Assembly: GCA_951406725.2 (NCBI GenBank)
Contig: OX597821.1
Coordinates: 100,254,001 to 100,318,000, forward strand
Source: Octopus vulgaris
Taxonomy: Eukaryota
Reading direction: 5' to 3'
DNA length: 64,000 nt
A model generated the notes under the pieces. The model was not told the DNA's origin. It searched no databases and worked only from the letters and a program-made list of their open reading frames with translations. Both the position numbers and the translations under genes were made by a program. Position 1 is the first letter of the stretch; every line of letters starts with the position of its first letter. Of this stretch, positions 4,550-49,170 are shown piece by piece.

Positions 4550-4585
4550 TTTTCTGTAGAAGAGCGTAGGCTCGAAATGTAAAAG
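4550..4585 (+). ncRNA. Minimal type-I hammerhead-like motif, A6U variant (copy 1)
   Basis: TTTT CTGTAGA A GAGC-gtag-GCTC GAA ATGT A AAAG, within a short repeat ending in (TA)n at 4676. Confidence 0.55.
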
Positions 4586-4829
4586 ACTTTTTCTATTCCT
4601 GAGCGTTATACTAATACATCTGTTTGTTTTGTACACCACCTGTCTTCGTCTTTTGTTTTTTTCGTAAACTCTCCCTATATATATATATATATATATATAT
4701 ATATATATATATATATATATATATATATATATATATATGGGTATATGGAGTAACGGTTATAATATACAGACTTATATAGATGTGCACGTGTGTAGGTATG
4801 TACGTTTTTTATTCTGTTATACATTTTAT

Positions 4830-4935
4830 CCTAAAGGCTGTGACCATACTGTAGCACCGCTAGTATCAGCAGTGACCATTGCTTGGCATTTGGTGAAGGA
4901 GGGAGTTTGATATTGCTGTGTTCGTTTGAGTTTCT
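4830..4935 (-). mobile_element. 3' end fragment of CR1-group LINE
   Basis: Reverse complement aactccctccttcaccaaatgcca...gcggtgctacagtatggtcacagcc matches 18830-18930. Confidence 0.6.
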
Positions 4936-5851
4936 TGCCATTACGTTAGTTTATTTGTGATCTTGAACACAAGGTCAAGGTGCCTCTTGAATATACATGC
5001 AAGATATTAAAAATAAATGTGGGTTTTTGAATCACAATTTATTACAGTACTTGATCCTTACTCTAGATAGGATGGGTGGGACTATTGGAACTGTGCAGAG
5101 GATCCTGTTCGGGGGGGCTGTTATAATTCTCGGTCGCAAAGTTTGGTGCAGCCCTCTATGTATGTATTTATGTATGTATGTATGTATGTATGTATGTATG
5201 TATGTATGTATACATATATCCAAATTTAAAGTTATTACATGCATGCTTGTACGTATATACATATATACATTTACACACACACATGCATGTATGTATATAT
5301 CTATGTATATAAAACCTTTGTGCTATTGTGCAACCCGAGTTGTTCAGTCGGTTCTGTGTCACTCTTGCCATCGTAATTGTAGTGAAGCATAATCAATTTG
5401 AACCTGTTGGATGATTAACCTCAAATCAACGATGATATTTTCCCCAAAATAAACAACGAAATGAATAAAAAAGTAAATAAAAAAACAGAAAATAAATACA
5501 TACCTCTTTTTTAAGGGCTGGTCGAATAATCCTAAAATGAAATAAAGAAAATACTGATGAGTTTAAATCGGAAACAGAAAAGAAATCGTAATATATATAT
5601 ATATATATATATAAGCAAAATAATTGAGATTCAGATGAATTGGGTACTTAGGTTGAAGCATCAAAACTTAGTGCAGTATTATCCGTACAACTTAAAAATA
5701 TGGTGAATAAAATCATAATAAGCAACAGGATATCTAGAGGATACACACACACACACACATACACACACACACACACACACACACACACACATATATATAT
5801 ATATATATATATATATACATATATACATATAACTTAATATAGACAGTATTT

Positions 5852-6030
5852 AAAGCGGCTAGCTGGCAGGACAATTACCGCACCATAAAATAATGCTTAG
5901 CGGCATTTCTTCCGATTTTGCGCCCTGAGTGACCTTGCCTTTCATCCTTTCGGATGATAAAAGAAGTATCACTTGTAATTGATTAGTCCGCCCACCCTTA
6001 ATTGCTGGCCTCGAGCCAAAATTTGAAACC
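5852..6030 (+). mobile_element. Degenerate SINE family B
   Basis: agctggcag...aatgcttagcggcattt...gcctttcatcctttcgg. Confidence 0.7.
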
Positions 6031-6244
6031 AGCTTACGCAGTATTTAAACAAGAGCCACTAATAGTTTCATGCCGTGGGAACAGGATAATTCGGCAGATT
6101 TGTATAATTTAACTTCCACGGCTTGAAACTAATAGTAGTGCTTACTTCAATACTGTACATATTAAATATTTATATCTTTTTTGTTAATCATAACTACAAT
6201 GGAGCAGTAAAGTATGTGTGTAGGCGTGTGTGTGCATGTGTGTG

Positions 6245-45440: not shown

Positions 45441-45689
45441 TATATATACGACGGGCTTTCACTTTCCGTCTAGCAAATCCACTCACAAGGCTTTGTTTGG
45501 CCCGAGGCTATAGCAGAAGACACGTCCCTAAGATGCCACTGTGACTGAACTGAAAACTATGAGTTTAGGAAACAATATTTTAAGCTCAATGTCACACATG
45601 CGCGTATTGCGCATGTTTGAGCATATGTGTATTTTGGTATCTATACAAATGTGCCTGCATATGTCTCGATATTAGTAATATATATTCTT

Positions 45690-46107
45690 TTATTCTTCTA
45701 CTCTTTTCTAGTTTCAGTCATTAAGGCACCGCCATAATTCGAGAAAATCGTCCCCAGGACTTATTCTTTGCAAACCTAGTAGTTATTCTATCATTCTCTT
45801 TTGCCGATCCGCTAAGTTGCGCTTATGTAAACATACCAACATCTGTTTTCAAGCGAAGGTTGGGACACACAATTACACGCATATATATGTATATGTATGT
45901 GTGTGTGTGTATGTGTGTATGTGTGTGTGTGTGTGTGTGTGTATACGACGTGTTTCTTTCACTTTCCGTCTACCAAATCAACTCACAAGGTTTTGGTCGG
46001 GCCGAGGCTAGAGTAGAAGACACTTGCTCAAGGTGCTTAGTGGGACTGAACCTGGAACCATATGGTTGGGAAGCAAGCTTCTAACCACACAACCACACCT
46101 GCGCCTA
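45690..46107 (-). mobile_element. SINE family A (additional partial copies at 45448-45600, 46678-46755, 48143-48260, 40860-41050 and 55215-55385)
   Basis: Similarity to the family A consensus. Confidence 0.85.
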
Positions 46108-46394
46108 TGTATATTATATTCTTTTACTCTCTTACGTGTTTCAAACCAAAGGCTGTGGCCATTCTGGGGCAATGCCAGTGGAATCTCATTTCCAATGACC
46201 ATTCATATGGTATTGGCTTTTGCTGAAGGAGGGAGTTCGATATTGGTACCATGTTTTGAGCTTCTTGCTGTGATGGTTCATATTCGACCTTGGATCATTG
46301 GAGGTTAAGTTGTTCCATCAAAACATTTACCCCTACTCCGTGAAGAACCCTCTGGTATTTTGGCTATATATATATATATATATATATATATACT

Positions 46395-46579
46395 CTTTAT
46401 GACAAGAAGATCTGTTGACTGATAATCGACTGATAATCGACTCCGGATTGTATATGACATGGATGTAAAGACTTGTGCGGCAATAACATTCACCTCTTAC
46501 AGAGTCGATTATCAGTCAACACAGTAATAAGTTACAGAAAAGGGTGACGAGATAGAAATCCCATCTTCTTGTCATAAAG
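46395..46579. repeat. Nested fold-back between (TA)n and (TG)/(TA)n tracts
   Basis: ctttatgacaagaagat / atcttcttgtcataaag outer arms and tgttgactgataatcgac / gtcgattatcagtcaaca inner arms. Confidence 0.8.
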
Positions 46580-48477
46580 TGTGTGTGTATATATATATAT
46601 ATATATATATATATATATATATATATATATATATATATATATATATATATGTATATACACATATACATATATATTCATACGATGGGTTTCTTCCATCTTC
46701 CGTCTACCAAATCCACTCACAAGGCTTTGATCTGCCTGAGGCTATAGTAGAAGACATATATATATATATATAAGCCTCACACATACATGCATATGCATAT
46801 ATAATGCATACATACACAAACACACATATATATATATCTTATATGTATATTTATATATAAACATGTAAATACATGCATGGATAAATGCATGTTTATTTGT
46901 GTGTATATGCATGCATCTCTCCGTTCATGCATACATAAATCTGCCTGAGTGCTAGTTTATTTGTAAGTGATAACAATAATACAAAACGATGCATATGTGC
47001 GCATAAGCTTATCTACGGTATCCACTAATTCTAAAATGGAGAATATGTCTTCAATCTACATACAGTTAGGTACCAGCGAAGTAAAGGCCACTTTATCTTA
47101 TGAGAGTATTAGCGCAAATTTCCGTGGGTTGTAACATTTATTTTATTGTGACGATTGACGCACATCATAGGAAAAGAATCAATAAGCCTTATATACCCTC
47201 TCACCAAAAATACTGTTTGAAGATACTAAGAACTTAACGTCAATCTTTTTATTAAGCCGAAACTATTTACTAAGAGTGACAAGTTTCATTAATTCAACCC
47301 TGAAGTCTTTTGATTAAAAATGTAATAATTGACTAAATGGGAGATAAATGCTTTAGAGAAAGTTTTGGTTTAACCTCCGTTTAATCAAATACAACATGTC
47401 CGCGATTATTTTTAACTAAAAACATCTAGGGCGTTCGGCTATTTTGTGTAATGCAATGTCATCTCGTAATATCTCAAACCGTATTATATAAAATAAAGCT
47501 AGGACATTTGATAATTTTCTGTAATGCGGTGTCGTTATATGTAATAACCTAACGGATATTATCCAAAGCAGCTAGGGCATTTGATAATCTTTTGCATCCT
47601 CATTAAAACAGGTAACGTATTTCAAACGAATGTGCTTTATGCTTGCGTATGTGTTTGCATTTGAGTATATCAGGGCGTATGTGTGTGAGTACATGCGCAT
47701 TTGTCTGTATGGATGGGTGTGTATTTGTGTGTGCGTGTACATGCGTGTCTGTGTGTGTGTTTGTATTAGTCATGTTGTCTTCTTCCCTAGTGTTTTGAAA
47801 TACAGACTTGATGTCATAAAACACAGGATATTGAAATGCGTTTCCGTATTCTCGGGATGTCAGAGAACAGTTTGCGATAGCAAATGGGAAGATAACGTGC
47901 TTATGCAGCTGCTCTTTCTAATGCTGAGATACATGCTTTAAATATTTTATATACAAAAGATTAACGACGTGCTTCCCTTTTATAAACACTCGTACATGGC
48001 CTCCTGTTGTTTTACAAACAGAATAAATATTCTTTTTCCATAGAAATATAGCTATATATGCAAAAACAAAAGTAGAGAACAAAAGAAGTTTTACACAAGT
48101 TGAACATGATATTCATATTAGTTGGCTCTGTTGTTATAAAGCTCGCACTGATTTCGGGTTCAATCCTACTGTGTGGCACTTTGGGAAAAGATCTTCGACT
48201 AACATTACCAATGTCTTGTAAGTGAATTTGGTAGATGGAGTCTGTATGGAAGCCAGCCGTTTATATATATATATATATACATACGTACATACATACAAAT
48301 ATACATACGTACCTACATACGTAGATACATACATAACATGTATACATATATATATACATATGCATATACACACACATATATATACTTACATACATATATA
48401 CATATATGTATGTATATATATATATATATATATATATATATATATATATATATATATATATATATATATATATATAT

Positions 48478-49170
48478 CATTAATAATAAAGGGTAAAATT
48501 AATTAATTAATTAATCAATTAATTAATAATTAATAATTCTACCAAGTAGTTCGGTATGTTAAAAGAATCATTATCGGTAAAACTTAAACAAAAATTCTTA
48601 TAATTATGAGTATAATTATAATTAGTGTTCAGCAAAGAAATTTGCTTTACCACTTTATTATTAATGATGATATAATTCTCTCTCTAATAGTAAACTACAG
48701 TTTTGTTTCTGTAGAATTTTACATGATATTACACGTGGGTGGGTGAGGGAAAATACGAGATCTCATTCGTCTGTTTGAATTCAGAGGTACTGGTCATTGG
48801 ATATAATTTGTCTGGTGTCGCTGGAATCAGATAAGGTATGTTAATTTTTTTCTTTTTTTACAGTGCTCTCAATTTTAAAGTCTTGAAGTACTGTGCTGAA
48901 GAGCGAGAATGATAGAATGGAAATGTGGCTTTTGCATTTTTCATATCTATCTAACTCCGAAACGCGTTCACAGTTAATGTAAACCGAGTGAATTCGTTAC
49001 TTTTTTTCTCTTTACCTGCGTGGGTTGTTGAGTATTGTCGTCTGGGAGATTTTCTTATGGTAGAGAAATAACGAGTTTTGGATGCTATTTCTAAATTTCG
49101 GTAGGTGGTGAAGCAAATTTCTTTGCTGAACCCTAATTATAATTATACTTATAATTATAAGAATTTTTAA
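48478..49170 (+). mobile_element. ORF-less HHR element with an inverted terminal copy, in (TA)n
   Basis: 48591-48652 is inverted relative to 49105-49168; 48478-48498 is inverted relative to 48646-48666. Confidence 0.78.
48890..48974 (+). ncRNA. Type-I hammerhead ribozyme with canonical core
   Basis: ACTGTG CTGAAGA [long stem II G..GAG/GATAGA...TCTATC/CTCC] GAA ACGCGT T CACAGT. Confidence 0.82.

Follow-up and report, generated by a model that had tools for sequence, protein, structure and literature searches.

Why does a 64,000-nt stretch of the Octopus vulgaris genome, called the window in the following, contain ten sites with the geometry of hammerhead ribozymes, distributed over six sequence families (A to F)? 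An initial annotation had seen in them a radiation of non-autonomous retroelements without open reading frames (ORFs), mobilised by Penelope-like elements (PLEs) and carrying minimal ribozymes that favour cleavage as dimers. The families were followed in loci fetched from the genome (2.8 Gb, 227 contigs). In our view it is very probable that these motifs represent minimal hammerheads of the Penelope type and mark the 3' ends of insertions likely made by a PLE reverse transcriptase (RT) with a GIY-YIG endonuclease, family B being the end of an autonomous element, the other families ORF-less units that likely borrow such proteins, and family C likely a short interspersed element (SINE).

Six families of hammerhead motifs

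All ten sites were recovered, with the core (C3 or U3) at 4554, 33202 and 42098 on the plus strand (family A), at 7259 on the minus and 8650 on the plus strand (B), at 9468 minus and 9722 plus (C), 15390 minus (D), 33635 minus (E), and 48896 plus (F). They have the type I order of stem I, conserved core with C3-G8 or U3-A8, stem II, GAA, a minimal, palindromic stem III, H, and stem I. A strict descriptor (near-intact core, at least three pairs in stem I and four in stem II, palindromic stem III) yielded seven matches in the window, compared to a mean of 0.44-0.48 and a maximum of three in block dinucleotide shuffles (2 x 100), and the frequency thus exceeds the chance level of about 0.5. A second descriptor yielded five matches, versus a mean of 0.22 and a maximum of two after shuffling. 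Five of the seven strict matches are sites from the list above; the other two, at 36799 and 54311, are weak, have no 3-8 pair, and were rejected as being at chance level. Relaxation of the palindrome rule also recovered 4554 and 9722. The sites at 33202, 33635 and 48896 escaped both descriptors because of a stem II mismatch or a bulged, long stem II; they were recognised by eye, and the latter two were additionally checked by folding. To avoid circularity, the palindrome requirement was dropped on 846,590 bases of fetched loci. Stem III was palindromic in 118 of the 141 matches and 17 of the 21 clusters obtained in this way, versus 5 of 20 matches in ten shuffles, the loci being bait-enriched and two families each being split into two clusters.

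The proposal that all sites share a CUGANGA-like core holds for the conserved order, but not for every base. Family A has CUGUGGA or CUGUAGA, with A6U in 27 of 27 matches, and U3-A8 replaces C3-G8 in families B and D. The G10.1-C11.1 pair is combined with an extra nucleotide after position 9 in A, C, and D, and is present in F without the extra base. Four motifs are damaged, namely 9722 by G8A and a palindrome decayed to ACAT, 4554 by a palindrome decayed to ATGT, 33202 by a mismatch in stem II, and 15390 by a private A9G. Between families, the stems are wholly different in sequence and pairing is kept.

All six families are genome-wide repeats. In a first look, with 40 candidates scored per family, the lower bounds were at least 546 candidates for A, 920 for B, 880 for C, 685 for D, 1611 for E, and 1724 for F. 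Rough copy numbers can be estimated from bystander counts, i.e., 44,000 for A (12 sites), 22,000 for D (6 sites), 21,000 for C (5 sites), 7,000 for F (2 sites) and 4,000 for B (1 site), with no bystander seen for E. About ten further hammerhead contexts surfaced as bystanders in the fetched loci, and therefore the window samples a larger set.

Fold-backs are single insertions of the Penelope type

The four fold-backs that had been described in the window were all found again. Family B forms one at 7176-8767, with a tail-less arm on the minus strand (7176-7930) and a plus-strand arm (7930-8767) that ends with a tail of about 34 nt (8734-8767). In the C fold-back (9330-9807), a 5'-truncated, tailed arm with an intact hammerhead on the minus strand (9330-9479) faces a plus-strand copy that ends without a tail, and a 13-nt target duplication surrounds the pair. 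The D fold-back (15262-15553) consists of a tail-less minus-strand arm (15262-15396) and a tailed plus-strand partner truncated at stem I (15396-15553), again within a 13-nt target duplication. In F (48476-49170), a short minus-strand arm with a long tail (48476-48653) is joined to a tail-less plus-strand arm (48654-49170). The expected proximity to (TA)n was seen for seven of the ten copies, but not for the two C copies and only weakly for D.

Alternative 3' ends, with and without the tail, are present in families B to F. Exactly one arm was tailed in 77 of 86 head-to-head pairs, neither arm in 7 and both arms in 2. By family, the one-tailed pairs amounted to 4/4 in B, 33/35 in C (where the baits lacked the tail), 17/17 in D, 13/17 in E, and 10/13 in F, the D and E counts being biased by baits that contained part of the tail. 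The B pair of the window is beyond the distance limit of this count and fits the one-tailed pattern, too. Target duplications of at least nine bases, mostly 11-15, surround whole pairs in 21 of 35 cases for C, versus 69 of 1190 mismatched controls, and in 9 of 16 cases for D, versus 18 of 240. The combination of alternative 3' ends with one tailed arm per pair thus characterises families C to F, and duplications were examined for C and D only. The fold-backs are single PLE-type insertions, and each of them would record priming from both sides of one cut.

This pattern is in agreement with the traits described for PLEs, as far as covered by the accessible parts of the sources. They include 5' truncation, inverted truncated copies, a tail of 30-40 bp at one end, and a bias for (TA)n (Craig, 2021, PMC8557442). 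For one PLE it has been described that the protein cuts and extends both strands, with two internal start sites by which the tail is defined, and that the hammerhead is dispensable and cleaves only together with the protein (Frangieh, 2024, PMC11167929). By analogy, the PLE protein may cut AT-rich DNA on both strands, reverse transcription may begin shortly behind the ribozyme, at two internal positions, yielding one tailed and one tail-less end, and the two cDNAs may join head to head to form a fold-back. RNA polymerase III (Pol III) would transcribe family C from its head, F would repeat head to tail, and copies of A and E would span the region from a transcription start site to the RT start site. 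Families A and E may have their transcription starts at the fixed 5' ends, given that these have initiator-like motifs and that a promoter has been described in the pseudo-long terminal repeat (pLTR) of Penelope (Craig, 2021, PMC8557442). Under this mechanism, the ribozyme is predicted to cut only as a dimer or with the help of protein, to be dispensable for insertion, and to decay in dispersed copies.

A PLE origin and a minimal geometry of the dimer type, as proposed initially, are supported. However, the ribozymes of a fold-back sit on opposite strands and read-through gives a long hairpin instead of a dimer; therefore, fold-backs cannot dimerise in cis and supply no dimer partners.

Family C joins a tRNA-like head to a Penelope-type end

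A feature of family C that the initial annotation had overlooked is its tRNA-like head. In the window, the plus-strand copy consists of the head with A-box and B-box motifs (9477-9553), a variable (TAC)n(TAA)n spacer (9557-9667), and a body with the damaged hammerhead and the tail-less 3' end (9668-9807). The general unit is composed of the head, a (TAA)n-type spacer, a body of about 50 nt, the hammerhead, and two 3' ends that are about 35-45 nt apart, and four full copies are 266-350 nt long. The A- and B-boxes, about 44 nt apart, match the consensus. When the head alone was used as bait, 25 of the 29 loci proved to carry a hammerhead on the same strand, downstream of the head, and three of the remaining four contained it in an inverted copy. 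An inverted partial C copy is located upstream of the head in 20 of these loci, and in all 29 the upstream sequence is either an unrelated flank or inverted self. Family C is thus a short, ORF-less unit with a defined 5' head, as is typical for a SINE. Of the hallmarks of mobilisation by a long interspersed element (LINE), neither poly(A) nor a shared 3' end was found, no LINE library having been searched; the ends and pairs are of the PLE type. One full-length copy contains no run of four T.

Transcripts of family C were found in three runs of one study, which may stem from another species, with 4814-6589 of 11.5-12.9 million reads on the ribozyme plus tail. Reads were equally frequent in both directions, three quarters of them run into unlike flanks, and they confirm the two 3' ends at about 1:1 (1538 and 1374 loose ends in run X21). 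The reads demonstrate that embedded copies are read through; they do not demonstrate a discrete Pol III RNA or cleavage. A search with one C copy gave no RNA on record that contains it. In the same RNA (L033:1475-1645, runs X21-X23), A>G and T>C differences reach 8-27% at about a dozen sites, versus 0-5% in 106 genomic copies. This may be the pattern of A-to-I editing of the double strands formed by fold-backs, in RNA that is possibly from another species.

Family C is likely a SINE that is mobilised by PLEs. The chances are about even that it is, specifically, a tRNA-headed SINE that is transcribed by Pol III, has captured the end of a PLE pLTR, and has been spread to some ten thousand copies or more by a Penelope-type RT/GIY-YIG protein. 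The joint reading that one-tailed C fold-backs within single target duplications record two-ended PLE priming in vivo appears to us to be just as evenly balanced.

Family B is the end of a young autonomous PLE

For family B, the assignment to a non-autonomous radiation had to be given up. Two family B matches, 5821 bp apart, flank a full element (locus L091) with the order pLTR with hammerhead and tail, ORF1, ORF2 of the RT/GIY-YIG type, a microsatellite-rich region with a long TG-rich part, a second pLTR, and (TA)n. The two frames encode 480 and 776 aa from stop to stop. The second contains RVT_1 (E 6e-8), a CX4CXXC linker, and a GIY-YIG-type end; Pfam GIY-YIG did not score on the L091 protein itself, and PF01541 is annotated on many of the 120 homologues listed for it. 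These features correspond to the RT with C-terminal GIY-YIG and CX2-5CXXC linker of the Neptune type, a clade call that is based on motifs. Partial tandem pLTRs, an inverted truncated copy, a tail at one end, and a (TA)n target are likewise present in B. Identity to the 3' end of L091 amounts to 98.2% over 927 nt for the tailed arm in the window and to 98.9% over 751 nt for the other arm. All 40 scored 3' ends of B are 100% identical and all 40 scored ORF junctions are 99-100% identical, and family B is therefore judged to be young. By its sequence, the B pair of the window derives from a young autonomous Neptune-type PLE, which it represents in truncated and inverted form, and at least 40 near-identical, ORF-bearing copies exist.

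Two additional features of B were observed. A 44-bp minisatellite in the pLTR (window positions 7277-7505 and 8405-8632) differs in copy number between copies. Furthermore, ORF1 and the RT frame overlap in the -1 frame (L091:3593-3653) with an in-phase U UUU UUA heptamer that is kept in 24 of 25 distinct copies, and the overlap likely represents a programmed -1 frameshift site. The hairpin predicted downstream of the heptamer is only weak. A frameshift with a pseudoknot has been indicated for some PLEs in a figure legend (Craig, 2021, PMC8557442).

Families A, D, E and F

Three A copies, all on the plus strand, are present in the window. Those at 4525-4675, which ends at (TA)n, and at 42080-42219, which has the motif typical of the family, are 5'-truncated, and that at 33131-33320 reaches the common 5' start. 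The family has a length of about 200 nt, and in 19 of 29 cases the copy extends as far as a common start, which is located next to a TCAG(T/A)C motif. Head-to-tail dimers, 174-328 nt apart, were found in 3 of the 29 A-baited loci. In a sister family (L133, L138, L143, L147), the core is the canonical CUGA(C/U)GA and the pairs of stem II are those of A, which suggests that A6U of family A is derived.

Family E is represented in the window by one tailed copy on the minus strand (33338-33697) with a long, AU-rich stem II and an 8-nt palindrome. Elsewhere, copies reach up to about 1 kb, with a start common to four of ten long copies and no ORF above 90 codons. The F monomer comprises 560-585 nt; its tail runs into its own start, and head-to-tail tandems occur at 559-585 nt. 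The plus-strand F arm of the window, with a long stem II and ACGCGT, is part of such a monomer. The stem II regions of E and F are 55-65 nt long, and their tails about 100-140 nt. Just 5' of the F hammerhead, splice-like signals are present at 48827-48864, with possible donors about 100 nt further upstream; introns in PLE pLTRs are known. Copies of D mostly start just 5' of stem I, and a few run 200-380 nt into CA-rich sequence. By sequence, A, E and F resemble units without ORFs that either have fixed starts or are monomers in head-to-tail order, and for A, C, E and F a non-autonomous status is plausible.

As had been stated initially, the host elements within the window lack ORFs, and no RT or endonuclease fragment was found there. 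The suggested link of the tails to the pLTRs of autonomous PLEs could be established for B, with 98% identity to L091, but the searches gave no partner for the other five families. A tblastn search of 181 loci with the B protein revealed no partner ORF for the other families, seven extended RT/endonuclease fragments led to other hammerheads or to none, and five extensions of GIY-YIG loci gave no partner ORF. During these searches, at least eight clusters of GIY-YIG ends were encountered, mostly Neptune-like (L183, L185, L188, L247-L272). Several of them carry hammerheads of their own, e.g., one of the U3-A8 type with ACATGT in 13 matches, and one family has many open frames of 781 aa.

Conservation and decay of the ribozymes

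The check for covariation gave a divided result. Stems that differ between families pair nevertheless, but covariation within families is uninformative. Changes outside of CpG are rare in the A core (2/188, versus 4.6% in the flank) and in the GAAA box of C (2/423, versus 3.4%), a bias by baits or alignment being possible in both cases. CpG loss in the palindrome box of C amounts to 17%, compared to 21% in the flank. G8A is present in 13 of 90 C copies, which do not share private changes. In cofolding, dimers gain 1.8-9.3 kcal/mol without hammerhead geometry, and this result was given no weight. An accumulation of 5' ends at the cleavage site was considered and rejected, as most D copies, fetched with a bait downstream of that site, keep the ribozyme and end 0-20 nt upstream of stem I. 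The in vitro activity of such motifs has been described to be low even as dimers (Cervera and de la Pena, 2014, PMC4209133), and one of nine retrozyme dimers was reported to cleave in the accessible part of a 2026 preprint (10.64898/2026.07.22.740005).

Alternative explanations

Several results weigh against the explanation preferred here. Concerning the ribozymes, the usual G10.1-C11.1 pair is absent in B and E, compensatory changes within families are scarce and copies differ mostly by decay, and the predicted dimer folds clearly use the stem III palindrome in only two of six copies (B and F). Concerning insertion, family A shows a single 3' end and one inverted pair, an end inside the (TA)n run being invisible, and the above-mentioned bias affects the D and E pairs. 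Concerning family C, the tRNA-like head is weak; ARAGORN detected no tRNA in the window and two of 29 heads at a relaxed score, and no Rfam tRNA was among the matches listed for another copy. No pile-up of read starts or ends was listed for C, at the cleavage site or elsewhere, and the reads did not cover the head; a fragmented library of read-through copies is not expected to give a pile-up of ends at the site. Concerning the missing partners, the upstream sequence of about 29 loci per family (A, C, D, E and F) gave no RT or endonuclease, nor did ten long E copies, and none of these families turned up downstream of 30 GIY-YIG loci. Family A or E may thus consist of solo pLTRs that belong to an autonomous element which escaped detection.

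Alternatively, all six families might be 5'-truncated or start-to-tail copies of autonomous PLEs, with the partners of A, C, D, E and F having been missed and the head of C being a tRNA pseudogene that was captured once and copied passively. This is true for B, a few copies of which also begin near an initiator-like TCAGTT at 8178, and the CA-rich sequence into which D runs for at least 380 nt resembles the 3' region of B. In addition, the search for partners included 150 scored GIY-YIG candidates of 6136, 30 of which were cut out. However, the head of C is the 5' end in all 29 head-baited loci, the tail of F leads to its own start and not to an ORF, and no copy of A visibly extends beyond the common start in 29 loci. 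Taken together, this explanation is unlikely, but it has to be taken seriously. A rather improbable alternative is that A and F, and perhaps C, belong to the non-LTR retrozymes and multiply via self-cleaved, circular RNA monomers. The dimers of A and F described above have the head-to-tail arrangement of such elements, and the monomer sizes are within the range of 51-972 bp given in the accessible part of the 2026 preprint. On the other hand, the ribozymes are minimal, in contrast to the canonical loop-loop type described in the available part of Cervera (2020, PMC7229834); most copies are single or inverted, and the insertions end at PLE tail sites and not at the cleavage site. No circle-type joint was among the joints listed for the C reads, in which the head was uncovered.

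That the motifs have arisen by chance, or are features of fold-back DNA transposons resembling miniature inverted-repeat transposable elements without any link to ribozymes or PLEs, is very improbable. The window is AT-rich and repeat-rich, Rfam gave no hammerhead among the matches listed (best 150 of 370), and the descriptor yields 1-3 chance matches per 711 kb. Against this stand the excess over shuffled sequences, the asymmetric tails and unequal arm lengths, and the identity to an RT/GIY-YIG element, which has already refuted the idea for B.

Relation to known systems

The motif class, its link to PLEs and the idea of non-autonomous derivatives are already in print; the following comparisons refer to the accessible parts of the sources. 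Cervera and de la Pena (2014, PMC4209133) have described such minimal motifs together with the U3-A8 variant, in truncated copies that occur singly and in pairs on opposite strands at a distance of 100-700 bp. The octopus motifs resemble these published PLE hammerheads in the type I order, the short stem I, the extra nucleotide after position 9, the palindromic stem III, the occurrence of U3-A8, the many families per genome, and the prevalence of single or opposite-strand copies of truncated PLEs. Unlike them, A6U is found throughout family A, E and F have a stem II of 55-65 nt, and one carrier has a tRNA-like head. With Neptune-type, endonuclease-positive PLEs (PMC8557442, PMC11167929), the octopus elements share an RT with C-terminal GIY-YIG, the CX2-5CXXC linker, partial tandem pLTRs, an inverted 5'-truncated copy, a one-end tail of 30-40 bp, and (TA)n targets; they differ in the fixed -1 overlap that splits the coding region of B and in the longer tails of E and F.

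ORF-less hammerhead units, some of them head to tail, are also typical for metazoan non-LTR retrozymes (PMC7229834; Li, Clavereau and Pollet, 2026, preprint). It has been argued that animal retrozymes are non-autonomous PLE derivatives (2026 preprint, 10.64898/2026.07.22.740005) and that metazoan non-LTR retrozymes derive from PLE pLTRs (Li, Clavereau and Pollet, 2026, preprint), and 16 hammerhead families have been reported for a coral (PMC7229834). The octopus families differ by their minimal ribozymes, by mostly dispersed or inverted copies, and by arrays that do not exceed dimers in the sample, which were found at a few A and F loci. Contacts between loops 1 and 2, as in a canonical type I ribozyme, are not supported by a stem I of 3-6 bp without a defined loop 1 and a minimal stem III. 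The 2026 preprint also admits minimal motifs in retrozymes, and its accessible part includes no mollusc among the species sampled.

The nearest precedent of family C is Sm-alpha of schistosomes. Like C, Sm-alpha and Sj-alpha (PMC6765202, PMC8490949) are short repeats in which an apparent Pol III promoter is linked with a type I hammerhead. Unlike Sm-alpha, which forms tandem repeats that are released by cleavage, C is dispersed, starts at the head, ends at PLE tail sites, and has inverted partners; a PLE as mobiliser of Sm-alpha is not stated in the available parts of these papers. Family C also resembles tRNA-derived SINEs, including OR1 and OR2 of octopus (Ohshima and Okada, 1994, as cited in PMC4824008 and PMC4758252), in that it is short and ORF-less with a tRNA-like head, a simple-repeat spacer, a high copy number, and target duplications, but it has no poly(A) or LINE tail. 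SINEs are defined as LINE-dependent in SINEBase. No PLE-mobilised SINE, tRNA-headed carrier of a PLE end, or hammerhead in this group was found in the literature, Repbase and subscription journals being outside of the search. The new part is therefore likely family C, with its tRNA-like head, PLE ends and hammerhead; it may already have been named in Repbase or among the octopus SINEs of 1994. If true, a SINE that makes use of PLE enzymes would broaden what counts as a SINE, and a PLE/SINE partnership would stand beside that of LINEs and SINEs. The C RNA of about 290 nt, which combines a ribozyme and a putative internal promoter with RT start sites that have been mapped, would form a compact system together with the young autonomous PLE, in which two questions could be addressed, namely how PLEs build inverted, one-tailed insertions and what their hammerheads do.

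Additional observations

Window positions 6870-6985 contain a decayed relative of a hammerhead-like 3' end that is located behind a Poseidon-like RT plus endonuclease in locus L188. At 33320-33340, the A copy adjoins the E copy, tail against tail, in a single short (TA)n run, and in the fetched loci PLE copies are frequently nested at common microsatellites.

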